A DNA stretch of 64,000 bases from Naegleria gruberi (Eukaryota): NCBI GenBank assembly GCA_000004985.1, contig GG738916.1; one strand, written 5' to 3'. Positions within the stretch are counted from its first letter, which is position 1. Every line of letters starts with the position of its first letter. Of this stretch, positions 36,774 to 53,164 are shown in pieces. The position numbers and the translations under genes were made by a program. The notes under the pieces were generated by a model that saw nothing but the letters and a program-made list of their open reading frames with translations, was not told where the DNA came from and made no database searches.

Positions 36774-39700
36774 ATGTTCTCTAACAAAGATAATGATCCC
36801 TTGGCTGTGATCGATAGACTTTTACCTCGTTCATCAGGTTCTAGAAGTTTGTCCTATCTAAATAGTCAAGAGGAATTTAATTCTAATTTTGATGTTTTAA
36901 TTTCACCACCTCGTTTATCCAACACTATTCGTGAGAAAACCATCGGAAGCAATACTCTCCAATTATTTGATGAGACTACCTCGTATTATGAACTCTTCCC
37001 AATTATTGAAAATAAGAGAAAGAAGAATACATCTGATGATTTATTAAAATTTGGTATTACTTGGGAAAGTTTTGTTAAACCAAAGATTAGCTTTAAGAAT
37101 GCTAATCAACACAACAAGGATTTTGATCGTAGAATTGAAGAACAAAACGGAAAGAATTTGTTAGAAAAGTTTTTAACCATGTTGCAAGAACAATTGAGAT
37201 TGGATCAAATTTCATCCAACAAGTATGGTGTTGCTAGTGGACTTTCTAAACAACAAGTTGCTTGTTTGATTGCTAAACAACTTTATATTGCTAAGAGAAA
37301 GTTTAAAAACACTTTATCTGTTAAGAGTGTTTTCAAAGATTTACAAAATATGGGTATTGGCTTGTCACTTGATCCAAAGACACAAAAGTTGGAACAAATT
37401 GTCAAGGAAGTTCACATTTTGAAAGTTTTGGAACATTTGGAAAAGTTAATGGATTGGATTGACAGATATGCCAAACCAAACTTGGCAGAAGAAGAAGCCA
37501 AAAGATATGGTAAAGTTGAAAGACTTATTATCGGAACTGGTGAATCAAAGAATACTAATACATACTTTTCCACTGGTACAGAAAAAGATAATGATGAATA
37601 TGATGATGAAGCTCTAGTAATTGATGAAAATATTGAATTTGGTTCTGCTGATGATATTACTAATGCAGACCATTTGCATAATCAATTTAGAAATATTAGT
37701 ATCTTCTCTAGATCCCAATTGGAAAATGTTTTAGACCAAACTAATCTATTCTCCTTCACTGCACCAACAGAAAATGTTGAAGAAGAGGAGGAAGAAGAAG
37801 AAGAATCTGTTCTTTCTTCCATGTATACTGTTGATTGGTTGGAAAAGGAAGCCAGAAAGATTTGCAAGACACCAGGTATTGAAAATATTGTTTTGGATAT
37901 TTTACAAAAGAAGGGACAAGATGCTGTTCAATTACAATCTCGCTTATTCGATGCTCTTGGAGAAAATGCTTTCGAATTAATGTCAATTATCATGGAACAT
38001 AAGTCAGAAATTTTGGCTGATTTGTATAGAATGCAAATGGCAGATAATGCTGTTGAAGGTATTAACTCATTCTCTCATGTAAAGATGACAACATCCAAGT
38101 TCAAGGATGCTCAAAAGAAGCTCAAGAAGGAAGGTAGAAAAATTGGTAGAAAGAATCAAACCAAGTTTAACCTTTCAGGAGGAAACTCTGAAAATGAGTT
38201 GAATGAACTCAAATCACTCTATCAAACCTTCAAGAAGGAAAAGGATAGAAATGTTCTCAAGGCTGGTGAAGGAGAATCTAGAGTACTTGTTCTCGGAAGA
38301 GATGTTATTCCAGAGTCCAATAATGAGGCTGATAAAGAAACTCAAGAAAGAGTTATCAGACAACCAACTTATGAAGAACACGTCTTCCCTGCTCCAAAGA
38401 AACGTGAAGATAACACACCACTTGTTCCAATTTCTATATTTGAAGATTGGGCTCAACTTGCATTCAAAGGTTATACTCACCTCAATCGTGTACAATCTGA
38501 TGTTTTCTATTCTGCTTATAAAACTAGTGAAAACATGTTGGTTTGTGCTCCAACAGGTTGCGGTAAGACAAATATTGCAATGATGACAGTTTTGAGAGAA
38601 ATTGGCCAACACTTTAAGGGAGGAAAGATTAGACGTGAAGAATTCAAGATTATCTATATTGCTCCAATGAAAGCTTTGGCAGCTGAAATGGTTGAAAACT
38701 TCTCCAAGAGACTTGCACCACTTGGCATTACAGTAAAAGAAATGACTGGTGATATGCAATTGACAAAGAGAGAAGTACAACAAACTCAAATGATTGTTAC
38801 TACTCCTGAAAAGTGGGACGTAACAACCAGAAAAGCCTCTGATCAAGCTTTAATTCAATTGACTAGATTGATCATTATTGACGAAGTTCACTTGTTGAAT
38901 GAAGACAGAGGTCCAGTTATTGAATCTATTGTTGCTAGAACTTTAAGACAAGTTGAAACAACACAAAGTATGATTCGTTTGGTTGGTTTATCTGCTACTT
39001 TACCAAATTATATGGATGTTGCTAACTTCCTCAGAGTTGATCCTCATTCCGGATTGCACTTCTTTGATGGATCCTATAGACCTGTTCCACTTGAACAAAG
39101 TTTTATTGGTGTCAGTATTAGAAATCCAATTGCTAGAAATAAGGAATACAATCAAATTGCCTTCAATAGAACCTTGAAGAATTTGAAGAGAGAAAAACAA
39201 GTCATGGTTTTCGTTCACTCCAGAAAGGAAACTTCCACTACTGCCAAAGCTTTAATTGATTTGGCAGTTGAAGAAAATGCTCTTGATATGCTCACTGCTG
39301 GAGTTAAAATGAGTGAACATACCAGAAAGTGGGTAACTAAATCATTAGAAAAGTGTCACAATAGAGAATTGAAAGAATTGGTACCAAAAGGTCTCGGTAT
39401 TCACCATGCTGGTTTAGTTAGATCAGACAGAAATCTTGTTGAAAAGCTCTTTTCTGAAGGTATTATTAGAGTTTTATGTTGTACCTCTACACTCGCTTGG
39501 GGTGTCAACTTGCCATCATATTGTTGTATTATTAAGGGTACCGAAGTTTATAATGCTGAAAAGAGTACCATGACTGAACTTGGAATGTTGGATATTATGC
39601 AAATTTTCGGTCGTGCTGGTAGACCTCAATTTGACGTTGAAGGTGAAGGTGTTATTATTACTAGTTATGAAGTTTTACCTCGTTACCTCAACTTGTTAAA

Positions 39701-42700
39701 GAGAAATTTACCAATCGAATCACAAATGACACAAGATTTGGCTAACCACTTGTGTGCTGAAATTGTTTTGGGTACAGTGTCCAATGTCAGAGAAGGTTGT
39801 TTATGGTTGAATTATACTTACCTCTTCTTGAGAATGAGACAAAACCCAATGAATTATGGTATTTTACCTGAGGAAGTCAAGCTCGATCCTTCATTGATTG
39901 GTATGAGAAAGAGTCTTATTGAAAAGGCCTGTAAGATGTTACAAGAAAGCAAGATGATTATCTACGACGAAAGAACTGGTGTTGTTTCTGCAACTGATTT
40001 GGGTCGTATCGCCTCTCACTTCTATATTCACTACGAAACAATTCAATTGTACAATGAAAAGCTCCATCCAAAGATGTCCGAATCTGATGTTCTCCACATA
40101 GTTGCTAGTGCCAGAGAGTTCAAGAATATCAAGGTTAGAGAAGATGAATCTGAAGAACTTGCTGAATTATCAGCCAATGCACCAGTTAAAGTTACAAAGG
40201 GACAAGATGAATTCACTGGAAAGGTAAATTTGTTGATTCAAAGTTACATTTCCCATGTTAAGATTAAGAATTCATCTCTCATTTCCGATTGTGCCTTTAT
40301 TATTCAGAGTGTTGGTAGAATTATTAGAGCAATCTTTGAAATTGCTATCAAGGAACGTTGGTCATCTTTAGTTGACAAACTTTTAACCTTGACAAAATGT
40401 ATGGAAAGAAGACAATGGGTATTTGAACATCCACTCAGACAAATGTCAAAGATTCCAACCTTTGCCTTGCAAAAACTTGAAAACAAGAATTTGACCCTCT
40501 CCAAATTAGTTGAATATGAAGAATCCGAGTTGGATCAAGTATTGAATGTTAGAGGAATGGGTAGAATTATTATGGAACATATTGATAGATTCCCTCACTT
40601 GGATTTGGAAGCTAACGTTCAACCAATTACAAGAAATGTTCTTCGTTTCCAAGTTAAAATCAGACCAAACTTTACTTGGGACAAGAAATTGCACGGAGAA
40701 ACAGAGCCTTGGTGGATTTGGGTTGAAGATGAAAACTCTGAATTCATCTATCACTCTGAGTACTTCTTGTTAAAGCATGATGAATATGAAAAGATGATGA
40801 AAGAATCAAGAGATGACGAAGAAGGACCATGCTATTCTCTCAACTTTGTTGTTCCTTTCAGAGAAGATCCAAGACCTCTCTATTTTATTATTAGAGCAGT
40901 TTCTGACAAGTGGATTAGTGCAGAAGCACAAATTACCGTCAATATTAAGGATATTATTTTACCAGAAGGTTTTGCTCCAAGCACTCCAATTCTCCCATTG
41001 GATCCTCTTCCAATCACCTGCTTGAACAATCCTGAATATGAAAAGTTATATGCTGATAAGGGTATCAAATATTTCAACCCTGTACAAACACAAATTTTCC
41101 ACATGACATACCATACTGATGAAAATATTCTTATTGGTGCACCAACAGGTTCTGGTAAGACACTTGCTGCTGAATTGTGTATCTTTAGATTGTTCAATAC
41201 TAAACCAAATCAAAAGGTTATTTATATTGCTCCTCTTAAGGCCCTTGTTAGAGAAAGACTTGTTGAATGGGAAAAGAAGTTTGTTCAAAAGTTAGGCAAG
41301 AAAATGGTCGAATTAACTGGTGATTTCACTCCTGATGTTAAATTATTGAAGGAAGCTGATATTGTTATTACAACTCCTGAAAAGTGGGACGGTATTTCTC
41401 GTAACTGGCAAAATCGTTCCTATGTCAGAGATGTTGGTTTGATTGTCATGGACGAAATTCACTTGCTTGGCAGTGGAAGAGGTGCTATTTTAGAAGTCAT
41501 TACATCTCGTATGAGATATATTTCTTGGAACACTCAAACTCACATTCGTTTGATGGGTCTCAGTACGAACATGGCTAATGCTACTGACTTGGCCGATTGG
41601 TTGGGTGTTGGACAAAGAGGTTTGTTCAACTTTAAGAGTTCTGTAAGACCTGTTCCTTTACAAATTAGTATTTCTGGATTCAGTGGTAAGAACTATTGTC
41701 CAAGAATGAATTCTATGAATAAGCCAGCTTATCAAGCAATTTTGAGACACTCCAACAACAAACCTTGTTTGATTTTCGTTTCTTCCAGAAGACAAACCAG
41801 ATTGACAGCAATGGATTTGATTGGTTATTGTTCTGCTGATGAAAATCCTCACAGATTCTTGAGAATGGACCAAAATGAAGTTATTAGTGCTTTGGAACTT
41901 GCTCGTGACACTCACCTCAAACAATTCTTACAATATGGTATTGGTATTCACCATGCTGGTCTTACTCCATCAGACAAAAAACTCGTTGAAGAACTTTTCC
42001 ACTCTGGTAAGATTCAAGTCCTTGTTGCTACTAGTACTTTGGCTTGGGGTGTCAACTTGCCAGCATACTTTGTCATTATCAAAGGTACTGAATTTTTTGA
42101 ACCATCCACAAAGAGATATGAAGATTATCCACTTGTTGATGTATTACAGATGGCTGGTCGTTCTGGTCGTCCAGGTTTCGATACTGAAGGTAGAGTTTTC
42201 ATCATGGTTCACGATATTAAGAAGAATTTCTACAAGAGATTCCTCTATGAACCATTCCCAATTGAATCAAGTTTGCATACTCAATTGCATGACCACATCA
42301 ATGCGGAAATTGTTTCAGGAACTATCAAGACCAAACAAGATTGTTTGGACTATTTAACTTGGACTTTCATGTTCCGTCGTCTTGTCCAAAATCCATGCTA
42401 TTATGGTATTGAAGATTTGTCCTATGAAGGATTGAACAAGTGGTTATCTACTAAGATTACCAGTATTATTGATGACTTGGAATATGCTGGACTTGTTAAA
42501 GCTATTGATTTGAATCTTGATAAGAAGAAACGTTGGGAAGTTATGGCTTCTCAAACACAATCATCAACCTTTGGTACTATGACAGCTGAGAAGGAAAAGG
42601 CTGAAAAGGAAATCCAAAAGGCCAAGGGAATTTATTTGGAACCAACAGCAACTGGTATTATTGCCAGTTTCTATTATTTGTCATATAGAACTGCTTCTCA

Positions 42701-43661
42701 TTTCAACAGACTCATCAAGGCTGATTCTAACGTTAACTACTTGTTAGAACTTCTCTGTGAAGCTAAGGAATTTGCTGAAATCCCTGTCAGACATAATGAA
42801 GACAAGTTGAATAAGGAATTGAGTGAAGTTGTTCCTCTTGGAGTTTACATGCACGACTATGAATCTCCACACATTAAGTGTTATTTACTTTTACAAGCTC
42901 ACTTTGAAAGAGTCAAGCTTCCAATTGTCGACTACATTACTGATACTAGAACAATTTTAGATTCTACCATCCGTATTTCTCAATCCTATATTGATATCTG
43001 TGCCGAAAAGGGATACTTGCAACCAACAATTAACATGATGCACATTTTGCAAATGATCATGCAAGCCAGATGGGCAACAGATTCAACCCTCTATCAATTG
43101 TTCAGTAATTTGCAATGTCCACGTGAAAATACTGAAAGTTCTTCAGAAGATATTCACAACTTTATTCAAAACTTAGCTCAAAAGGAAAATGTCACTGGTC
43201 TCAAGCAATTGTTGGATGTTAAATATCAACAAGGCGAGTCTGCTTTGCAAAAATTGATTTCCAAATATTTGAGAAAGAACAACTTAGTATCCAATCTCAT
43301 GAAGATTGTTGAAGAATTCCCATATTTAACTGTAAAGATTGACAAGGTTACTCACGATGAAGAAGATCACCAACTTGAAGTTTCTGTCAACATTGAAAGA
43401 TTAAGCAAACCAAAAGAACAAGCTTACACACCAATGTATACCAAACAAAAGGATGAAGGATTCTGGTTGATTGTTTCTAACCCTCAAAACAATGAATTAT
43501 TAGCTCTCAAGAGAGTAAGAGCAAACAGAAAATTCAATCGTACTGAAGTTTATCTTCCAGTCTCTGAAAATGATAAGGAATTGGAAGCTATTGTTGTTCC
43601 TGATTGCTATCTTGGTTTAGATGTTTCTTCTAAATTCTTGTGTAAGATTCAAACTAAATAA
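36774..43661 (+). CDS. ASCC3: ASCC3/Slh1-type tandem Ski2-like RNA/DNA helicase (two DExH helicase-Sec63 cassettes)
   Basis: 2295-aa single ORF. Cassette 1 has CAPTGCGKT, DEVHLLNEDRGPVIESIVART, LSATLPNYMDVANFL, VFVHSRKET and HHAGL. Cassette 2 has FNPVQTQIFH..GAPTGSGKT, IAPLKALVRER, TTPEKWDGISRNWQNR, DEIHLLGSGRG, IFVSSRRQTRLTA, ATSTLAWGVNLPA and KRFLYEPFPIESSL. The C-terminal KDEGFWLIVSNPQNNELLALKRV is closer to ASCC3 than to Brr2. Confidence 0.9.
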   Translation: MFSNKDNDPLAVIDRLLPRSSGSRSLSYLNSQEEFNSNFDVLISPPRLSNTIREKTIGSNTLQLFDETTSYYELFPIIENKRKKNTSDDLLKFGITWESFVKPKISFKNANQHNKDFDRRIEEQNGKNLLEKFLTMLQEQLRLDQISSNKYGVASGLSKQQVACLIAKQLYIAKRKFKNTLSVKSVFKDLQNMGIGLSLDPKTQKLEQIVKEVHILKVLEHLEKLMDWIDRYAKPNLAEEEAKRYGKVERLIIGTGESKNTNTYFSTGTEKDNDEYDDEALVIDENIEFGSADDITNADHLHNQFRNISIFSRSQLENVLDQTNLFSFTAPTENVEEEEEEEEESVLSSMYTVDWLEKEARKICKTPGIENIVLDILQKKGQDAVQLQSRLFDALGENAFELMSIIMEHKSEILADLYRMQMADNAVEGINSFSHVKMTTSKFKDAQKKLKKEGRKIGRKNQTKFNLSGGNSENELNELKSLYQTFKKEKDRNVLKAGEGESRVLVLGRDVIPESNNEADKETQERVIRQPTYEEHVFPAPKKREDNTPLVPISIFEDWAQLAFKGYTHLNRVQSDVFYSAYKTSENMLVCAPTGCGKTNIAMMTVLREIGQHFKGGKIRREEFKIIYIAPMKALAAEMVENFSKRLAPLGITVKEMTGDMQLTKREVQQTQMIVTTPEKWDVTTRKASDQALIQLTRLIIIDEVHLLNEDRGPVIESIVARTLRQVETTQSMIRLVGLSATLPNYMDVANFLRVDPHSGLHFFDGSYRPVPLEQSFIGVSIRNPIARNKEYNQIAFNRTLKNLKREKQVMVFVHSRKETSTTAKALIDLAVEENALDMLTAGVKMSEHTRKWVTKSLEKCHNRELKELVPKGLGIHHAGLVRSDRNLVEKLFSEGIIRVLCCTSTLAWGVNLPSYCCIIKGTEVYNAEKSTMTELGMLDIMQIFGRAGRPQFDVEGEGVIITSYEVLPRYLNLLKRNLPIESQMTQDLANHLCAEIVLGTVSNVREGCLWLNYTYLFLRMRQNPMNYGILPEEVKLDPSLIGMRKSLIEKACKMLQESKMIIYDERTGVVSATDLGRIASHFYIHYETIQLYNEKLHPKMSESDVLHIVASAREFKNIKVREDESEELAELSANAPVKVTKGQDEFTGKVNLLIQSYISHVKIKNSSLISDCAFIIQSVGRIIRAIFEIAIKERWSSLVDKLLTLTKCMERRQWVFEHPLRQMSKIPTFALQKLENKNLTLSKLVEYEESELDQVLNVRGMGRIIMEHIDRFPHLDLEANVQPITRNVLRFQVKIRPNFTWDKKLHGETEPWWIWVEDENSEFIYHSEYFLLKHDEYEKMMKESRDDEEGPCYSLNFVVPFREDPRPLYFIIRAVSDKWISAEAQITVNIKDIILPEGFAPSTPILPLDPLPITCLNNPEYEKLYADKGIKYFNPVQTQIFHMTYHTDENILIGAPTGSGKTLAAELCIFRLFNTKPNQKVIYIAPLKALVRERLVEWEKKFVQKLGKKMVELTGDFTPDVKLLKEADIVITTPEKWDGISRNWQNRSYVRDVGLIVMDEIHLLGSGRGAILEVITSRMRYISWNTQTHIRLMGLSTNMANATDLADWLGVGQRGLFNFKSSVRPVPLQISISGFSGKNYCPRMNSMNKPAYQAILRHSNNKPCLIFVSSRRQTRLTAMDLIGYCSADENPHRFLRMDQNEVISALELARDTHLKQFLQYGIGIHHAGLTPSDKKLVEELFHSGKIQVLVATSTLAWGVNLPAYFVIIKGTEFFEPSTKRYEDYPLVDVLQMAGRSGRPGFDTEGRVFIMVHDIKKNFYKRFLYEPFPIESSLHTQLHDHINAEIVSGTIKTKQDCLDYLTWTFMFRRLVQNPCYYGIEDLSYEGLNKWLSTKITSIIDDLEYAGLVKAIDLNLDKKKRWEVMASQTQSSTFGTMTAEKEKAEKEIQKAKGIYLEPTATGIIASFYYLSYRTASHFNRLIKADSNVNYLLELLCEAKEFAEIPVRHNEDKLNKELSEVVPLGVYMHDYESPHIKCYLLLQAHFERVKLPIVDYITDTRTILDSTIRISQSYIDICAEKGYLQPTINMMHILQMIMQARWATDSTLYQLFSNLQCPRENTESSSEDIHNFIQNLAQKENVTGLKQLLDVKYQQGESALQKLISKYLRKNNLVSNLMKIVEEFPYLTVKIDKVTHDEEDHQLEVSVNIERLSKPKEQAYTPMYTKQKDEGFWLIVSNPQNNELLALKRVRANRKFNRTEVYLPVSENDKELEAIVVPDCYLGLDVSSKFLCKIQTK

Positions 43662-43773
43662 ACAAAGTTCCGATTCTTGGCTGCGAATTGAATGTTGTAG
43701 TATTTCATTCCATTTTAACTATAAATCTTTCTCTTCTACTTGCATGCATTGTTTCAGTCACCTCTCTGAAATT

Positions 43774-43971
43774 CCAGAATATTGTGATCTTTCTCGAAAT
43801 ATGTGTTGAATTTGTAATAACATCATTGCTCTATGAGAGGAGCAGTGAAAGTTACAGAGCAGAGATGAGCACCAACTATGATTGAATAATCACGAAGGAA
43901 TGCAAAAAGAGGATGTGTAGAAGTTTTTGATTGAAGGTTTGGTTGTTTATCGATTTCAGACATTTTTTTTG
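43774..43971 (-). pseudogene. Truncated, frame-disrupted duplicate of mitochondrial-carrier exon 1 (inverted copy)
   Basis: The minus strand reads MSEIDKQPNLQSKTSTHPLFAFLRDYSIIVGAHLCSVTFTAPLIEQ*. It is identical to the 50270.. gene start until two 1-bp deletions introduce a stop. Homology ends at the repeat boundary with no downstream exons. Confidence 0.55.
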
Positions 43972-44167
43972 AGTTTTACAAAGTTCACCAAATTTATCTT
44001 TTAATAAAATGAAAGAAAAAATGGGGTAAAAACCGAGGTTTCTTTCTCGATGAATATTGAGTTTAAAGATGTGATTTTTGGAGTAGAGATAGTAATACAT
44101 GTCTAGTTTAAGTGGTATAAAGTTGAAAAAGAGAAAATGAAAGAATGTTGAAATGGAAAATAATTTA

Positions 44168-44238
44168 TGCGTCGACCGGGAATTGAACCCGGGTCACGGC
44201 GATGGCAACGCCGTATTCTACCACTAAACCATCGACGC
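44168..44238 (-). tRNA. tRNA-Gly (GCC), canonical copy
   Basis: Minus strand GCGTCGATGGTTTAGTGGTAGAATACGGCGTTGCCATCGCCGTGACCCGGGTTCAATTCCCGGTCGACGCA. Anticodon loop TTGCCAT. Intact T-stem CCGGG/CCCGG. Confidence 0.9.
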
Positions 44239-44451
44239 TTCTTGATATCTATCATAAAATGTTGTTAATCAATAAGCTAATGGAGGTAGCATATTACTGT
44301 TCCAAGTTTTTTTAATAAATGTCACTTAATCCACAATAAATTGCAATTTTAATTCTATTATTTTCACTTCACATTCAATTAATTCAAGAATTTCAAACTT
44401 AATTTACAAAAAAATGTTTTAAAGTGAAAAAGCAAAACCGAGCACAACATT

Positions 44452-46812
44452 ATGGGAGTAAATACGAAAAGCAATACACTGCTTACACTTGTTTCCAAGT
44501 GGGCAGTCTCCAATTCCATTATTATTCCTACCAACAACAATTCTGCATTGGAAAATCATCACAATGTGCAACAATCAACAAGCCTTTTAGATTTGCTTCC
44601 GATGAGAGTAATTGAAGAATTACTATCCTATCAATCGGCCTCTTCATTGGAACATTACTATTCTCTTTATTCTTCATCAAACTCTTCATCATCAAATGTA
44701 TTGATGAATAATAATTATAATATTAATTTGAATAATAGGAAATTAATGCAAAGGATTGTGGATCAATGTTTTGCAAGATTAATCGGAATTCAATTTGGAG
44801 AACCTCTAATTTACTCTAAATTGCAGACAAAACAAGGACAGTTACTGAAGGAAGGTGAGGAATTGGGATTATCATCACTCGAAGACTTGGATGATGAAGG
44901 TTATCATATAACAAGCTATTTTGAAAGTTATTTGCAAAAGTGTTTGGTGAATGTGTTATCGGAGAGACAAATTATTGAATTTGTCAAGATGAGTGATGAA
45001 GAGAATGAAAAAGTGAATGAAGATTGTGTTGTTTATAAGGAATTTCTCGATTTACCAATTGCAGATTCTGTTCTTAATCTTGCATTTTCGGAATTTGATG
45101 AGAACAATGAAATATTTCACTACTCAAAACGTATTTTCAATACGATTGGACAAGCTGTTTCTAAATTTGCTAAATATTCGAAAAAAATATCAGTTCCAAA
45201 GACTCTCTTGAAATATTTGGATGAAAGTTGTTCGATTGAGGAGTTTTTTAGCAATTTTACTCATGTTCATGAAATATCCTTCAGAGATATGAGAGATTCA
45301 GATGTTCAAAATATTATTCATATTCTCAAGCAGTGTAATAATGTAGAATCACTTTCATTTTATCATACATTTTTCACAGAGTCCAATCTTGCAATGGTTT
45401 TAGATATTTACTCAGACGCCATCTATGTGCCTCCAACAGATTATTCAGTCTATTTTAGTGATGATATCATGGAAAAGAAACCAATAGAACCAGCAAATGC
45501 CATGGTATATGATGAATTTGATTTTTATAGTGACATTCTGTCTCCTTCAGTCCCAATCGAAACAACATTGGAATCCAATAAGAAAAGAGAAAATAATAAC
45601 TTGTTTATAGAAGACGAGCTTGATTCCAAAAAGAGAAAAACAGATCCACCCAAACTCAAGAAACTCTCATTCAGATCGATATCTCTGTATCACTCATCCT
45701 GTAAATCAATTAGAGAAATATTGGAATATAACTCAACAGATATGCATGGAGTGGAGCTGAATTTTTCCTTCAATGAAATGAGTTCAGTAATGGCCAATGA
45801 GATGCTCTCAGGAGAATCCATAAGAAATATAACAAGATTAATACTCACAGAAAACAATGTAGAAAATGACTTTCTCATTCACCTCTCATCTCAAAAAGAC
45901 TTTTTCAAAAGTATCAAACATCTAGATTTGAGTAATAATAACTTTGTTGGAACTATTGGAGTGAATGCATTATTCACAGCATTGAATAACTATTCTTCAG
46001 GTATTTCTTTGGAACATTTGAATATTAGTCACAACAAACTCGGGGGAACAGACCTCCTCAATGACAATTATCGAATTGTACACCAAAATGAATTTAGCAA
46101 ATTGATAGAATACTTGAATGGGCCTAATTGCAACTTGAAAGAACTTTTGATCTCAAATTGTGATTTAACCCAAACAATGGTCGAATCACTCCTACTTGCT
46201 GTGGCCAATAATTCATCCCTAACCACATTGGACATTTCCAATACTCATTCCCTCCGTTTGTGTGGTTCTTCTCTGTCTCTAATGATCACCTCCAACAGCC
46301 CCCTGAAGAAAATGTCCATATCCACATGCTCCCTCAATGAAATTTCAGATTCTCTCTTTAATTCTCTCCTCTCCAATACCTCTCTTAGATATTTAGATTT
46401 GAGTGGAAATCGTTTCAAAGAATATGGTGGGAAGAACATTCTGACCTATCTCAGAACCAAAATTGATCAGCAACTCACAGAAAAACGAAACAAACATCAA
46501 CCATTCCATTTGAATACTCTCGATTTATCCTCCAATACTCTAACAGAACAATTTTGTCTCCAATTGACCCAACTCTTTGCCTCTCACTCCACGGATACAA
46601 CTGAACTATTGGACAAACACTATCTTCAAGCTAATGGATTACCTCTCATTGACATTCTCCAATTGGAAAACAACTTTTTCTCTCCTCATCTCACTCTGAG
46701 ATTAAAACAAGCAGCTCTCGACAGTTTCATTGTGAATCGAATTGTTCTCACCAATGAAGATGGATCCTCTGAGGTATTTTCTAATGTTTGTGATGGAACC
46801 ACTCTCACTTGA
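44452..46812 (+). CDS. Leucine-rich-repeat (RNI-like) protein with N-terminal F-box-like segment
   Basis: 786-aa ORF. LLDLLPMRVIEELLSYQSASSL is near the N-terminus. RNI-type LRRs are present (LKHLDLSNNNF, LEHLNISHNKLG, LKELLISNCDL, LTTLDISNT, LRYLDLSGNRF, LNTLDLSSNTL). Confidence 0.55.
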   Translation: MGVNTKSNTLLTLVSKWAVSNSIIIPTNNNSALENHHNVQQSTSLLDLLPMRVIEELLSYQSASSLEHYYSLYSSSNSSSSNVLMNNNYNINLNNRKLMQRIVDQCFARLIGIQFGEPLIYSKLQTKQGQLLKEGEELGLSSLEDLDDEGYHITSYFESYLQKCLVNVLSERQIIEFVKMSDEENEKVNEDCVVYKEFLDLPIADSVLNLAFSEFDENNEIFHYSKRIFNTIGQAVSKFAKYSKKISVPKTLLKYLDESCSIEEFFSNFTHVHEISFRDMRDSDVQNIIHILKQCNNVESLSFYHTFFTESNLAMVLDIYSDAIYVPPTDYSVYFSDDIMEKKPIEPANAMVYDEFDFYSDILSPSVPIETTLESNKKRENNNLFIEDELDSKKRKTDPPKLKKLSFRSISLYHSSCKSIREILEYNSTDMHGVELNFSFNEMSSVMANEMLSGESIRNITRLILTENNVENDFLIHLSSQKDFFKSIKHLDLSNNNFVGTIGVNALFTALNNYSSGISLEHLNISHNKLGGTDLLNDNYRIVHQNEFSKLIEYLNGPNCNLKELLISNCDLTQTMVESLLLAVANNSSLTTLDISNTHSLRLCGSSLSLMITSNSPLKKMSISTCSLNEISDSLFNSLLSNTSLRYLDLSGNRFKEYGGKNILTYLRTKIDQQLTEKRNKHQPFHLNTLDLSSNTLTEQFCLQLTQLFASHSTDTTELLDKHYLQANGLPLIDILQLENNFFSPHLTLRLKQAALDSFIVNRIVLTNEDGSSEVFSNVCDGTTLT

Positions 46813-46996: not shown

Positions 46997-48499
46997 ATGA
47001 GTACAATCAGCAAGGGCTCAAAGGCCTCAACAACATCACAAAAGAAGGACAAACTGAAGGCTCTTCTCTGTGATAAAGTAATTGAATTGGTTAAAAAAGG
47101 AGGCAGTGCTCAAATACCTGCCGAAGCATTGAGTTTGATCAGTAGGGATGTAGATGGTCTTATGAAGGAAGGAAAAGGTAGCGAAGCTGACTTGAAGGTT
47201 ATTGCCAACAAGGTAAAAGGAATGCTATCAAAAGCATCTTCAACAGCATCCTCTAGACATTCTATTCCTCCTCTCGATACACACAGTGTAGCTTCTAAAA
47301 AGAGTTCAAGCTCTCACCAAAGCGAAAGATCCGAAATTGCAAGAAGTACCACTTCTAACCAACAACAAGAAACAGAAGAAGAACCTGCTTATGCTATTGG
47401 AACTTTGGGTGGATTATTCGGAGGTGGTATCAAAAAGACTGCCAAACCAAACAAGCCACCAAGTGGTGATGACATTTGGGCTGCCATTGCAGTTAAGGAC
47501 ACTGAGGAATATCACAATGAACAACATCAAGAGTACGTACGTCAAAAACAAAAGCAAGCAGAGTTGAGAGAAACATTGCAAAAGCAAAAGGAAGAAAACC
47601 ACCGTCAAGAAGAAATCAAGATTAAGAAGGAACAAAAATACATTGAAGAGCAAAAAGCAAGAGCTCAACGAGAAGCAGAAGAAGAAAAGAAGAGAGAAGA
47701 GGAGAGAAGATTGAGAATATTGGAAGAAAAGAGAGTAAGAGATCAACAATTAGAGCAATCCAAGATTAGAAAACAAATGATCGATCAAAAGAAGAAGGAA
47801 GAAGAAGAAGAACTTGTCAACAAACTTAAGAAACAAATCAATAAGGAAAAGGAGAAGGAAGTCCAAACTAGGGAAAGCAACAAGAAGGAACTTTCTTCAT
47901 TTTTGGCTTACAACGAAACCATTAAACAAAGAAAAGAAGAAGAAGCTAAGAAGGAAATTGAAGAAGACTTGAAATCGTTCAAGCTCTTTGAAGAAAAGCA
48001 ACGTCAACAAGAATTAAGAAGAGAGATGGAAATGAAGAAAATGTACGAAAGACAAAGTTTATCAATTGCTCTCTCTAACAAGTTAGAAGCCAATTTGGAT
48101 GAAAAAGCTAAGGAAGACGAAATTAAGGCAGATAGAATTCATTCTGAAATGGAAATGAAAAAGGAGAATGAAGACAAGAAGAAGAGGGATCGTTTACAAA
48201 AACAAAAGGAAGAAATGATGGATACATTGGCCAGACAAATTCAAGGCAAGTTTGATAATAGAAAGGAAGTTTTAATGGAAGAACAGAGACGTAAGGAACA
48301 AATTGAAGAAGATTTAAGAAAGGCAGAACAAGAAGAACTGGATAGAAAGAGAAGATTTAAAGAAGGTTTGAAGAATCAACGTGAATCTTTATCTGAACAA
48401 GTTAAAGAAAAGCAACACGTAACCATGAAACAAAGTGGTATGTCAGATATTGAAATGAAGCTCAATGCTGATAGACTGAAAAAGATTAACATGTTGTAA
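46997..48499 (+). CDS. Coiled-coil protein, E/K/R/Q-rich (trichohyalin/plectin-like repeats)
   Basis: 500-aa ORF. About 350 aa of heptad-like charged repeats (EEQKARAQREAEEEKKREEERRLRILEEKR...) follow a Ser-rich N-terminus. Confidence 0.55.
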   Translation: MSTISKGSKASTTSQKKDKLKALLCDKVIELVKKGGSAQIPAEALSLISRDVDGLMKEGKGSEADLKVIANKVKGMLSKASSTASSRHSIPPLDTHSVASKKSSSSHQSERSEIARSTTSNQQQETEEEPAYAIGTLGGLFGGGIKKTAKPNKPPSGDDIWAAIAVKDTEEYHNEQHQEYVRQKQKQAELRETLQKQKEENHRQEEIKIKKEQKYIEEQKARAQREAEEEKKREEERRLRILEEKRVRDQQLEQSKIRKQMIDQKKKEEEEELVNKLKKQINKEKEKEVQTRESNKKELSSFLAYNETIKQRKEEEAKKEIEEDLKSFKLFEEKQRQQELRREMEMKKMYERQSLSIALSNKLEANLDEKAKEDEIKADRIHSEMEMKKENEDKKKRDRLQKQKEEMMDTLARQIQGKFDNRKEVLMEEQRRKEQIEEDLRKAEQEELDRKRRFKEGLKNQRESLSEQVKEKQHVTMKQSGMSDIEMKLNADRLKKINML

Positions 48500-48554: not shown

Positions 48555-49259
48555 TTAATTTAAACTACCTAAGTAGTCTTCCTTGATGGTACCTACTGCG
48601 AACAATCCTGTTGGTTCGACTTTCATACCCATAATCTTTAATCTTACATCCTTTTCTTCCATGATGGAAACCTGATGATTGAATTGATGAAAATTAAATT
48701 GAATAATTATTCAAAGTTCAAATTGATGATGAAGATTCGTGATGAAAATTTAGGTATTGTTGTTGCATGTTAAAAGATTGAATTGTTGTGAAAATACATA
48801 CTTGAGCTTCTTCCGAAATAAATCTTGGAGGAGTATGATGGCCATCATACTTCATATCATCTGGAACAGCATGACTACTAACAAAAACATTCAATGGACC
48901 TAGATAATCAATGAATTATATGTCACACAACCACTGCAATACTTACCAACACTTGCAAAAAATCCAACTGGTGTTACTTTATATACAACAGCATCACAAA
49001 CTTCTCCTTTGAAAGGCTTGAATACTATAGCTTTATAATTAATAGGGAATGTAGCATATCCTGATGATTCTCCAATTTTACCTTGTCCAATTTTTGTGAT
49101 TTCTGTAACAGAAACAATATATCCATCTCTTCCTGTACATTGTCCTTCAACGTCGTTTTGAAGACGAGCACGAAGTGTACGAGTAAGATCAGGACCAAAG
49201 AATTTAGGATGCAAACGAATATTCTTGTCCAAATCCACCTTTTTTAATAAAATCCGCAT
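48555..49259 (-). CDS. RPB7: DNA-directed RNA polymerase II subunit Rpb7 (3 exons)
   Basis: Exons (minus strand) are 48947..49259, 48802..48899 and 48555..48671. Introns are about 48900..48946 (GTAAGT..TAG) and 48672..48801 (GTATGT..CAG). The product MRILLKKVDLDKNIRLHPKFFGPDL...VEGQCTGRDGYIV...YKAIVFKPFKGEVCDAVV...GPLNVFVSSHAVPDDMKYD...VRLKIMGMKVEPTGLFAVGTIKEDYLGSLN aligns end-to-end with Rpb7. Confidence 0.85.
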
Positions 49260-49617: not shown

Positions 49618-49794
49618 ATGGCAAAGAAGAAGGCAAAGACTATCCTCATCAAACTCGTTTCCAGTGCTAAAACTGGCTTTTTCTACACTACCAACAAGAA
49701 TACACAAAACATTCAAAGAAAATTGGCTTTCAGGAAATACGACCCAATTGTTGATAGACACGTTTTGTTCACTGAAGCTAAGGTTAAGAAGTAA
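49618..49794 (+). CDS. Mitochondrial ribosomal protein bL33 (58 aa; below ORF-track cutoff)
   Basis: MAKKKAKTILIKLVSSAKTGFFYTTNKNTQNIQRKLAFRKYDPIVDRHVLFTEAKVKK matches bacterial L33 (MAKG.R.KI.LVSSAGTGHFYTT.KNKR....KLELRKFDPVVR.HVIYKEAKIK). AAAAAATG start context. Confidence 0.8.
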   Translation: MAKKKAKTILIKLVSSAKTGFFYTTNKNTQNIQRKLAFRKYDPIVDRHVLFTEAKVKK

Positions 49795-49950: not shown

Positions 49951-50452
49951 TCATTAGTTATTCATTAACAACATTTTATGATAGATATCAAGAAGCGTCG
50001 ATGGTTTAGTGGTAGAATACGGCGTTGCCATCGCCGTGAATAGGGTTCAATTCCCGGTCGACGCATAAATTATTTTCCATTTCAACATTCTTTCATTTTC
50101 TCTTTTTCAACTTTATACCACTAAAACTAGACATTTATTACTATCTCTACTCCAAAAATCACATCTTTAAAATCAATATTCATCGAGAAAGAAACCTCGG
50201 TTTTTACCCCATTTTTTCTTTCATTTTATTAAAAGATAAATTTGGTGAACTTTGTAAAACTCAAAAAAAATGTCTGAAATCGATAAACAACCAAACCTTC
50301 AATCAAAAACTTCTACCCATCCTCTTTTTGCATTCCTTCGTGATTATTCCATCATAGGTGGTGCTCATCTCTGCTCTGTAACTTTCACTGCTCCTCTACA
50401 TAGAGCAATAGATGTTATTACAAATTTCGAGAAAGATCACAATATTCTGGAA
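49951..50452. repeat. Right arm of about 500-bp inverted repeat (carries variant tRNA-Gly and promoter/exon 1 of carrier gene)
   Basis: Reverse complement of 43772..44283. Confidence 0.85.
49995..50065 (+). tRNA. tRNA-Gly (GCC), variant/possibly impaired copy
   Basis: Identical to the 44168..44238 copy except the T-stem 5' strand. ATAGG replaces CCGGG (GTGAATAGGGTTCAATTCCCGG), weakening 2 of 5 T-stem pairs. Confidence 0.75.
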
Positions 50453-51063
50453 TAATCAATTGTATTACTGAGGTTGTAAAGAACGAAGGTATTTCGTTTC
50501 TGTGGAGAGGAAACGTTACATATTGTTTCAGAGAGGTGACAGTTGTTGCCTTAAATTTTTCTTTGCATGAGTCATTTAAGAAAATGCTTCCTCAATATTC
50601 TCCAGTCACTAATCAACTAGAATACTTATCTGGTAGTTTGGCAGGTCTTTCCACATTATCATTCCAATATCCATATGATTACATTTTTACTAAGGAATTT
50701 CATTATTTAAAACCAGGATTCAGAGCTTGTTTTAATGGCCTCTCAGATGTTGCACCCATTTCCATATTATATCGCGGTTTATATTTTGGTCTTTTTGATA
50801 TTTGGAAGGAAATGAGAAGAGACCACTACTCATTAACAAAGAAAGTGGTAGTAGCCCAAGGAGTTTCCATTATTTCTGGAGTTTCTGTTCGTCCTTTTCG
50901 ATTGGCTACAGATCGAGCATTAGGATATGATAGAATTCAAAAGAAATTCTACAAAGGAACTTTTAGAGAATTATGGAAGATTCGAAATGAACAAGGAGTG
51001 AAAGGTTTATTTAAGGGTGTAATGAGTGGATATCACACCTGCCTGTACTTTGATTCTGTTTGA
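50270..51063 (+). pseudogene. Divergent ADP/ATP-carrier-like mitochondrial carrier family gene, frame-disrupted by a 10-bp deletion near 50426 (or assembly error)
   Basis: Frame A 50270..50455 encodes FLRDYSIIGGAHLCSVTFTAPLHRAIDVITNFEKDHNILE*. Frame +2 from about 50437 encodes YSGIINCITEVVKNEGISFLWRGNVTYCFREVTVVALNF...YPYDYIF...GLFKGVMSGYHTCLYFDSV (compare AAC [39 protein letters not shown]). There is no GT..AG intron between the frames. Inserting the 10 nt found in the inverted left copy restores one continuous frame. The PX[DE]XX[KR] signatures are degenerate. Confidence 0.6.
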
Positions 51064-51208
51064 TGAAATACATGGATTACTTTTGGATTAGTTCAATAAA
51101 CTTTTCACAGTGTCATCATCACATCCATGGTCAGATATTTGAATGTCTGAAATATACTGATCAGTTAACAATGTATTAAAACACACGTTTTTAAATGAAC
51201 CAATGAAG

Positions 51209-53164
51209 CTATTTATTAGAATTCAATGAATGGTATTCAACTCTCTTACTAGCGAGAGGTTTATCAGTGCTATCAACATCATCATTTGTGAGAAACACTG
51301 GAACAATCTTGTCCATTAATGTATGTCTTTGAATGGAACAATAGACAGATAAGAGTTTCTCCTTATTCATATATTCAGAAATTGTTTCCACAGGTTCAAC
51401 ATCAGATGAAGTTTGACTATTCCTATAGATGGAGACCAATGTATCACAATACTTTTCAATTCTTTCCTTATCTACAATACAAGATTTGTGTAATAACCAT
51501 GAGCTAGCGCCAAATCTTGCTCCTAACATGTAACCACTAATGGCTGCAACAGTATCTGTATCATAACCATTCGAAATGATTGAATAGAGAAGTAATTCAG
51601 GGAATGGAATATTTGGCAATGCCAATTTCAAATGGTAAGCTTTGGAAGGATGAGCTGCCAAAATAATTCTAGGATTTTCTGGCATTACCGAAGCAACCAA
51701 ACAATGAATACCTCCCAAGAGACAGAATCCTTGATTGACATTTGCTTTCATGGCCTTCTTCTTGACACTCTTTGCTAGTTCAGAAATCTTTTCTCTGCAA
51801 TTCTTGAGCAATAATTCACTTTCTCTATTTTCCTTAATAAATTCAAATACTTGTTCCAAAATATTTGAAACATTGTGAATCGATTGATTCATTGGTTCAT
51901 AAATTTGGAATTGATTCTCAACCCGATCTCCCTTCTTCAATTCAGGGCAATAACTTCTCTGGAGCCACAATTTTTCATGTTTCTGAACAATGAGTGGAAG
52001 ATTATCCAAGATCCAATCAATGGTTTCTTGGCTATTACCATCTTGAATGAATTTGTAAGCAATTACATTGGATGCAAATGTCACTGATGAGCTTTCAATA
52101 GTTGAGTGAGTTGTCAAACATTGCGCATATGAGAAATTTGACAGAATGTCAATATACTTGTCATTAGTAGTAGAAGACTCGATAGAGGCATTCAATTTCT
52201 CCAATAATTCCAATTTTCTCTTTTCCTTTCTTGATAATATTTCTGAACTTTGCTTAACTTCGAATAAATTATTAGATTCCCTTCTTTCAATTCCAAGAAC
52301 TTTTTGTAAAGCAAAACATGTTGGAGCAACACAACATCTCATCATTCCACCAATTCCAGTAGTTTTAGACCCACTTTCATAGCAAGATTTGTTCTGGTTG
52401 ACTATTTTCTTCAATGCCCTCGAAGTATTGGATCCAAATTGTCTGAAAGCTTGAGAATTCTTTGCAACTAATTCGTCACCAAGTTTACAATCACCTTTCG
52501 TAAATCCTTCATAGAGCCATTTTCTCCAATAACTTAGAAATTCGGTAATATTCTCATGATCTTTCGAATATTTTACAAATTCAAGGATGGAATTGATCAG
52601 TGCGAAACCTTGTTGAGTATCGTCTGAGTGAATACCAACTGGACGAATGTGTCTCAGAAATAGCTCAGTACCACTTTCCTTTCTTTTCACACCGACAACC
52701 TTTTTGGCATTTTGCAGATGGGAGAAATCTTTAGAATCCATCAATTCCTTGCTTGGGAATCCTTTCTTTACGATTAGTCCAAAATCGAATAGTAAAAATT
52801 CCTTATCACCATAAAACTTTCGTATTTCACCTGATTTCCATCCTTCAATAGGACACCCAGCTACATCACCATAAACTTGACCCCAAATCGAACCAACCAA
52901 TCGATCAAGAATTTCATCCTTTTCGTCTCCATTCGAATATCTTTCGGAAGATGAATTTCCCTGCGTAGGACCATTCGTTTTCAACACTTGATCAACATAA
53001 TTCTGTATCACATCAGCATTGTAGAGAATTCTATTTTCAAATGATGAACTTTCGTCCTCCTCTTCACATTCTTGATTTTCTTCTAGATTATTTTCTTCTT
53101 GATTTTCCTGATCATCGTTGAATTTAATTTCTTCTCTGTCTTTCAGTTCTTGTTGTGAAATCAT
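51209..53164 (-). CDS. ADP-ribosylglycohydrolase (ARH) family protein with acidic N-terminal extension
   Basis: 651-aa ORF. VGSIWGQVYGDVAGCPIEGW, GIHSDDTQQGFAL and GIGGMMRCCVAPTCFAL correspond to the conserved ARH GDALG/TDDT/GNGAAMR blocks. N-terminal about 45 aa are E/D/N-rich. Confidence 0.6.
   Translation of the reverse strand: MISQQELKDREEIKFNDDQENQEENNLEENQECEEEDESSSFENRILYNADVIQNYVDQVLKTNGPTQGNSSSERYSNGDEKDEILDRLVGSIWGQVYGDVAGCPIEGWKSGEIRKFYGDKEFLLFDFGLIVKKGFPSKELMDSKDFSHLQNAKKVVGVKRKESGTELFLRHIRPVGIHSDDTQQGFALINSILEFVKYSKDHENITEFLSYWRKWLYEGFTKGDCKLGDELVAKNSQAFRQFGSNTSRALKKIVNQNKSCYESGSKTTGIGGMMRCCVAPTCFALQKVLGIERRESNNLFEVKQSSEILSRKEKRKLELLEKLNASIESSTTNDKYIDILSNFSYAQCLTTHSTIESSSVTFASNVIAYKFIQDGNSQETIDWILDNLPLIVQKHEKLWLQRSYCPELKKGDRVENQFQIYEPMNQSIHNVSNILEQVFEFIKENRESELLLKNCREKISELAKSVKKKAMKANVNQGFCLLGGIHCLVASVMPENPRIILAAHPSKAYHLKLALPNIPFPELLLYSIISNGYDTDTVAAISGYMLGARFGASSWLLHKSCIVDKERIEKYCDTLVSIYRNSQTSSDVEPVETISEYMNKEKLLSVYCSIQRHTLMDKIVPVFLTNDDVDSTDKPLASKRVEYHSLNSNK

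Follow-up and report, generated by a model that had tools for sequence, protein, structure and literature searches.

Between positions 50270 and 51091 of a 64,000-nt stretch of the Naegleria gruberi genome (contig GG738916.1, assembly GCA_000004985.1; hereafter the window), a gene resembling ADP/ATP carriers (AACs) starts in one reading frame and continues in another, and an inverted copy of its beginning retains nucleotides that the gene itself lacks. Such a locus raises the question of whether the gene is dead, functional in some unusual way or simply misassembled, and of what the two copies can tell about its history. A preliminary description of this DNA had offered three alternatives: a recent pseudogene pair, gene conversion between the repeat arms and a repeat-induced assembly error. 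Our analysis favors the first of them. Very probably, we are dealing with a young pseudogene and a gene fragment residing in an inverted segmental duplication of about 0.5–0.6 kb that also includes tRNA-Gly(GCC). A pseudogene and a fragment within a small inverted duplication are an ordinary kind of object; the particular lesions, however, differ from those described at first, and there are more of them.

A short inverted duplication with tRNA-Gly(GCC) and the start of a carrier gene

The core of the duplication is an inverted repeat pair, 43836-44275 and 49958-50397, in which 440 nt are 98% identical and the two copies are separated by 5682 nt. A second inverted matching pair (43771-43804 and 50420-50453) and further matching blocks stretch the copy to 50540 on the right and to 43757 on the left. 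The outermost block is an island of 15 nt, identical at 15 of 15 positions between left 43757-43771 and right 50526-50540 (E 2e-4). The right arm thus occupies 49958..50540 on the plus strand and includes the tRNA-Gly gene, the intergenic and promoter DNA and 271 nt from the start of the carrier gene, while the left arm, 43757..44275 on the minus strand, is its inverted copy. Each arm accordingly consists of tRNA-Gly(GCC), an intergenic spacer of about 200 nt and the beginning of the carrier gene. Two copies of high identity in opposite orientation with unique DNA between them are what defines an inverted segmental duplication.

The two tRNA-Gly(GCC) genes, both detected by ARAGORN, are not equivalent. 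The left one (44168..44238, minus strand) is canonical, scoring 66.9 bits against Rfam RF00005 with no non-standard pair, whereas the right one (49995..50065, plus strand) scores 54.0 bits and has one non-standard pair flagged. The weakening is due to three adjacent substitutions (CCC to ATA, alignment columns 144-146), which introduce a U.G pair and an A/G mismatch into the T stem. Both copies are above the Rfam threshold of 29, but, as their scores indicate, the poorer tRNA sits in the arm with the fuller carrier.

The surroundings of the repeat are well populated with genes. In the window, G+C content is about 34%, and ORFs are long and intron-poor. To the left lies a Brr2/Sec63-type helicase-like gene (36774-43661, plus strand), assigned by eye rather than by a profile, with an uninterrupted ORF of 2295 aa; to the right, an intact ADP-ribosylglycohydrolase-domain protein of 651 aa, identified with Pfam, is encoded at 51209-53164 on the minus strand. 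Between the inverted arms are an LRR protein (44452-46812), a coiled-coil protein (46997-48499), Rpb7 (48560-49259, minus strand, start at about 49259) and the mitochondrial ribosomal protein L33 (MRPL33, 49618-49794), a bacterial-type L33 and therefore one that points to the mitochondrial ribosome. Rpb7 has two apparent introns, GTAAGT...TAG (48946-48900, 47 nt) and GTATGT...CAG, which provide local examples of N. gruberi splice sites. We also considered whether the arms might belong to a mobile element but dropped this reading, as the genes inside encode the LRR, coiled-coil, Rpb7 and L33 proteins and a transposase is absent.

In all, one short region occurs twice, in inverted orientation, on either side of 5.7 kb of unique DNA with four genes. 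Inversions by staggered breaks, described for Drosophila, leave flanking inverted duplications. The inverted arms seen here may be the mark of such a staggered-break micro-inversion: as in Drosophila, short inverted copies lie at the would-be breakpoints, in this case around a 5.7-kb four-gene segment. Unlike in the Drosophila cases, the intervening segment is here only putatively inverted, gene order having been read in this window alone.

Insertion and deletion at the first break

The first disruption of the carrier gene falls within 50404-50460. Read from ATG 50270, the right gene runs for 61 codons (..APLHRAIDVITNFEKDHNILE*) and ends at TAA 50453-50455, and its AAC-like continuation, YSGIINCITEVVKNEGISFLWRGN, is found in frame +2, which is open from TAG 50401 to TGA 51061 (51061-51063). 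The preliminary description had recognized both the stop in this first frame (frame A) and the AAC-homologous continuation in frame +2, and both are confirmed. It had also explained the shift by a single 10-bp deletion, with the 10 nt retained in the left arm and giving one continuous ORF when put back. Additional bases are indeed present in the left arm at the equivalent site, but there are 11 of them rather than 10. The stretch bounded by the anchors GTTATTACAA and CGAGAAAG is ATTCAACACATATTT (15 nt) in the left arm but ATTT (4 nt) in the right, the surplus of 11 nt being located at left 43801-43811. To lead from frame A into frame +2, an insertion must have a length of n = 1 mod 3, and 11 nt alone are therefore no repair. 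Indeed, adding the actual 11 nt to the right gene gives ..THISRKITIFWNNQLYY* and no continuous ORF.

The site becomes understandable in the light of a third sequence. L001 is a contig of 718 nt from the ENA metagenome assembly ERZ929261, derived from environmental Naegleria; it encodes P0004 (127 aa), a protein found by an exhaustive HMMER search. L001 is about 97% identical to the window and spans the 3′ end of the tRNA, the intergenic region and the entry into the carrier gene. At the first break it has the 11 nt and is without an equivalent of A50410, in both respects like the left arm. L001 can be read through the site in a single frame (APLNRAMMLLQIQHIFRERSQYSGIINC / APLNRAMMLLQIQHIFRERSQYSGIINCFTEVV), and the reading is akin to helix 1 of AAC and the loop that follows, RVKLLLQVQH...YKGIIDC. 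Compared with the left arm and L001, the right gene therefore has two lesions here on the plus strand. The first is a 1-nt insertion at 50410, the A in CAAT-A-GATG (CAATAGATG), absent from both the left arm and L001. The second is an 11-nt deletion, CAACACATATT, at 50423..50427, both the left arm (43801-43811) and L001 having kept its 11 nt; the deletion is flanked by ATT microhomology, leaving its exact placement ambiguous. Together, +1 and −11 amount to a net change of −10 nt and thus a frameshift, and it is because the two lesions shift the frame that TAA 50453..50455 on the plus strand becomes a premature stop in the ATG frame.

It follows that frame A departs from the original one beyond A50410. 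Over 50410-50427 the in-frame reading is RAMMLLQIQHIF, and the ancestral reading at the site, to judge from L001, is APL[N/H]RAMMLLQIQHIFRERSQYSGIINC, resembling the bovine AAC segment. Judged against L001, the right arm represents the derived state at both changes; as a short metagenome contig, L001 could itself be a paralogous or allelic copy instead of a strict orthologue, in which case it would be a weaker guide to the direction of change. The repaired peptide proposed earlier (DVITNSTHIRERSQ / DVITNSTHIRERSQYSG) would require the left arm to contain one T less than it does, and its segment IDVITN is out of frame against L001. The Pfam Mito_carr score for repeat 1 ranks the possible repairs in the same order: 59.1 bits for the L001-guided one and 50.3 bits for the one suggested before. 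Another candidate, the addition of one T to the TTT run (yielding TNFRERSQYSG), had the lowest score, 48.9 bits, and was dropped given the frame of L001. A plausible by-eye repair of 10 nt can thus miss by one base, and a third sequence is needed to call an insertion apart from a deletion.

The left copy, a truncated 5′ carrier fragment at 43757..43963 on the minus strand (ATG 43963-43961), has suffered in its own way. One nucleotide, the equivalent of right A50398, has been lost between 43835 and 43836, and 73 nt, the equivalent of right 50453-50525, have gone between 43771 and 43772. Of the two 1-bp deletions previously ascribed to this copy, the loss of the A50398 equivalent stands, while the other is the A50410 insertion in the right copy when L001 is taken as the reference. 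The claimed truncation of the left copy at the repeat edge holds as well: its similarity to the right arm ceases some 95 nt short of the stop codon at the end of the Brr2-like gene (43659-43661), and a search of these last 95 nt for carrier remnants gave only chance-level matches beyond the 15-nt island. What remains in the left arm is a dead 5′ gene fragment.

The substitutions add a further asymmetry. In a three-way comparison of window 50049-50452, window 43772-44184 and L001, unique substitutions over the 404 shared sites number six in the right arm, none in the left arm and six in L001 (binomial p = 0.03). The left arm looks either "frozen" or copied from a different allele.

Lesions downstream of the repeat

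Two more indels, missed by the preliminary description, lie farther along the right gene. Compared with both L001 and the intact paralogue discussed below, the gene has a 15-nt in-frame deletion, ATGGTTGTTCAATTG, at 50625/50626 on the plus strand. The five residues concerned are MVVQL in L001 and MLMQF in the paralogue (EYMLMQFISGG), and the right gene is without an equivalent. The fourth lesion is a frameshifting gap of 3k+2 nt at 51030..51033, also on the plus strand. In the nucleotide alignment with the paralogue L002, which reads GGYPILSSIKPACT at this place, the gap measures 17 nt; this size is inferred only from a paralogue of 55% amino acid identity and is thus uncertain, 3k+2 being all that is required. 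A word-indexed protein search with the C-terminal half of the carrier matched only P0001 (the annotated product of this same locus, see below), so for the ancestral state near 51030 the paralogue is the sole guide. The shift itself is visible in two other ways. Three-frame translation places the C-terminal ITPACTLILFDEIHGLLLD* again in the ATG frame, and the tblastn high-scoring pair covering 51032-51088 falls in another frame, consistent with the fourth lesion. All four changes (+1 −11 −15 −17) add up to −42 nt, which accounts for the return of the C-terminus to the frame of the ATG.

With the four indels mended, the ORF is continuous. The near full-length, ADP/ATP-carrier-like pseudogene extends over 50270..51091 on the plus strand, from ATG 50270 to its original stop TAG 51089-51091, its frame being disrupted relative to intact relatives (L001 over the first site and the paralogue), as is characteristic of duplicated non-processed pseudogenes. 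Thus, neither copy is intact, as had been suspected: the right gene has four indels and the left arm its 1-nt and 73-nt deletions. The idea of reciprocal decay survives in part, since the left arm does keep nucleotides that the right arm has lost, though the details (11 nt, and an extra +1) differ from those first given.

In public databases the locus is represented by its second half. From an internal Met onward, the frame +2 ORF is identical to P0001, that is, NAEGRDRAFT_74651 (XP_002670352.1, D2VZX4), a 159-aa model from a 245-kb scaffold, listed as "predicted protein [Naegleria gruberi]" and named "ADP/ATP translocase" in UniProt. With a model of 159 aa, public annotation already treats the locus as a fragment. 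Our results would correct this annotation one step further: NAEGRDRAFT_74651 is probably a fragment model of a pseudogene and as such should not be counted among the carriers of Naegleria.

L001 has a lesion of its own, an 8-nt frameshifting deletion, AATCAACT, at L001 ~570-600, corresponding to window 50610-50617. As this deletion is at another place, the gene is broken differently in that strain, which suggests that the carrier locus is also decaying, independently, in a related strain.

Alternative explanations

Could the gene be intact in the organism, the lesions being due to an inverted repeat that was collapsed or wrongly joined, or to errors in base calling? The first pair of lesions does fall inside an inverted repeat of 98% identity, where assemblers can err, and all the lesions rest on one public assembly. 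Exact-protein look-ups of P0001, MRPL33, the 61-aa N-terminal ORF and P0005 recorded no independent assemblies, JGI metagenome contigs, scanned once with a single protein as query and once with an alignment, yielded no relatives, and literature searches on the ENA project accession and on Naegleria carrier pseudogenes returned nothing relevant. However, neither the inserted A nor the 11-nt deletion is present in the left arm, so reads mixed between the arms could not have created them, and the 15-nt and ~17-nt indels are outside the repeat altogether. Moreover, indels of 11–17 nt are not typical of base-calling errors. The flanking ORFs of 2295, 786, 651 and 500 aa are all unbroken, about 12 kb of coding sequence around the pseudogene is without frameshifts, and the window contains no Ns; local sequence quality is therefore good. 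Finally, the contig of the related strain is frameshifted in the carrier gene as well. An artefact is thus unlikely; we infer that the lesions exist in the genome and that no functional protein is made from the gene.

Continuing gene conversion from arm to arm, with their differences being conversion patches rather than traces of independent decay, fits the data even less well, and we consider it quite improbable. It would account for the 98% identity over 440 nt, and one-way copying from another allele could explain why only the right arm has unique substitutions. Conversion would homogenize the arms, though, yet within ~590 nt they differ by 6 substitutions (counted over the 404 sites that L001 also covers), by the cluster of three tRNA bases and by four indels. 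The lesions outside the repeat would also be left unexplained.

Less credible still is a gene that is functional as assembled, its frames being joined by small introns or by programmed ribosomal frameshifting. The long frame +2 ORF without stops would agree with such a gene, and the earlier statement that no GT..AG intron can join the frames proved too strict: frame-compatible pairs do exist, for example, 50414-50472 (59 nt). However, when we enumerated all frame-compatible GT..AG pairs for both frameshifts, every one of them removed conserved carrier-coding sequence, such as YSGIINCITE, and the candidate donors were never GTAAGT or GTATGT, the two apparent donors in Rpb7. Recoding, in turn, would require two separate events in opposite directions, whereas L001 reads through the first site with no need of it.

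Equally hard to credit is the original proposal that the right copy has lost 10 bp once and is otherwise undamaged, and that the left-arm bases restore an intact carrier (..DVITNSTHIRERSQYSG..): the net difference from the in-frame reference is indeed 10 nt and the left arm does hold the missing bases, but the real 11 nt do not restore the frame, the frame-A peptide over 50410-50427 is out of frame where the in-frame one is RAMMLLQIQHIF, and both the 15-nt deletion and the frame-breaking gap at ~51030 would remain.

Age and origin of the probable pseudogene

The probable pseudogene is young. The 219-codon stretch in frame +2 has no stops, although 7.5% per codon would be expected (P ~4e-8; 0 of 20000 shuffles), which indicates that the decay is recent. 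Comparison of the right gene with the paralogue gives an omega of 0.39 at a dS of 0.85, which indicates that the lineage was under constraint during the greater part of its history. Compared with L001, the right gene has 8 non-synonymous and 4 synonymous differences (omega 0.56), a value compatible with relaxed constraint, although 12 substitutions cannot separate neutrality from weak constraint.

In the most probable scenario, a segment of ~0.5–0.6 kb, comprising tRNA-Gly(GCC), intergenic DNA and the first 271 nt of the carrier, was copied in inverted orientation, so that its two arms now lie on either side of a 5.7-kb block with four housekeeping-type genes. The right arm is continuous with the rest of the carrier gene, now a dead gene with changes of +1, −11, −15 and about −17 nt. 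The left arm, with its 1-nt and 73-nt deletions, either began as a 5′ fragment or was whittled down to one. In all respects of substance this would be a typical case of duplicated non-processed pseudogenes. These similarly carry over the promoter and flanking DNA, without poly-A or marks of retroposition, and have the same kind of small disabling indels, many of them at short microhomologies, with one copy truncated at the edge of the duplication. The sole twist is that here the full-length "parent" copy is itself dead.

A divergent AAC-like subfamily

That the broken gene belongs to the mitochondrial carriers is clear from profile searches. The right gene scores 73–87 bits against Pfam Mito_carr (PF00153), and the mended translation reaches 87.2 bits at a cut-off of 22.3, two of its stretches passing on their own. 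Within the family, it is closest to AACs rather than to other carriers. Its best match among solved structures is bovine AAC1 (PDB 1okc, E 1.7e-22), the alignment covering repeats 1, 2 and 3; the top PDB matches are AAC1, another ADP/ATP carrier, AAC3 and AAC2 (E 1.7e-22 to 2.5e-15), followed by UCPs only at about 1e-7. The mended carrier shares with bovine AAC1 the blocks YxGIIxC, EGxxSFWRGN, ALNF, YRGLYFGLxD and LxLxDEI. On the other hand, the identity is only about 30%, repeat 2 of the right gene is some 25 residues shorter and its ORF is interrupted. The mended protein also departs from the hallmarks of the family. In place of the PX[DE]XX[KR] signature, expected on the odd-numbered helices of each repeat, it has PLHRAM, PYDYIF and PFRLAT, and instead of the RRRMMM signature of nucleotide carriers, which should follow the third of these motifs, it has ATDRALGY (..PFRLATDRALGYD.., compared with bovine PFDTVRRRMMMQS).

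The degenerate PX[DE]XX[KR] motifs had previously been taken as a sign of relaxed constraint. This does not hold, because the intact paralogue is equally degenerate. The paralogue, P0153, is a protein of 292 aa encoded at 536-1414 of L002, a contig from the same ENA sample as L001; its counterpart in N. gruberi is P0005 (NAEGRDRAFT_66225). The corresponding motifs in P0153 are PIRGVV, PLDFLS and PVGMAK. The paralogue and the pseudogene have 55% of amino acids in common and share the short repeat 2 (..LKPGFRACFNGL..), the degenerate motifs and the C-terminal PACTLxLFDEI. They differ in that the paralogue has an uninterrupted ORF on L002, resides on another scaffold and has no tRNA-Gly in the available 535 nt upstream. 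Since both the degenerate motifs and the short repeat 2 occur in an intact protein, they are traits of the family, not of decay.

How widespread is this subfamily? Library matches other than P0001, P0004 and P0005 all have E values of 1.7e-27 or weaker. The non-Naegleria matches that we read include two canonical AACs, P0012 and the top-ranking P0006; the other five, P0009-P0011, P0019 and P0044, are AAC-like. Given these weaker scores, the subfamily appears to be confined to N. gruberi-like strains in current databases. It is conceivable, though on the whole doubtful, that the gene and its paralogue represent a Naegleria-specific AAC offshoot, kept under selection (omega about 0.4) despite the loss of all three matrix salt-bridge signatures and of part of repeat 2; the same reserve applies, as a separate matter, to the staggered-break micro-inversion. 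Were such an offshoot to exist, its function would not be that of classical nucleotide exchange, and the dead gene described here would have fallen victim to redundancy not long ago. In any case, an AAC-like subfamily with degenerate motifs offers a minor lead for carrier evolution in Heterolobosea. As for the N. gruberi counterpart of the paralogue, the NEG-M model of NAEGRDRAFT_66225 stops at 164 aa and may be either mis-modelled or also broken.
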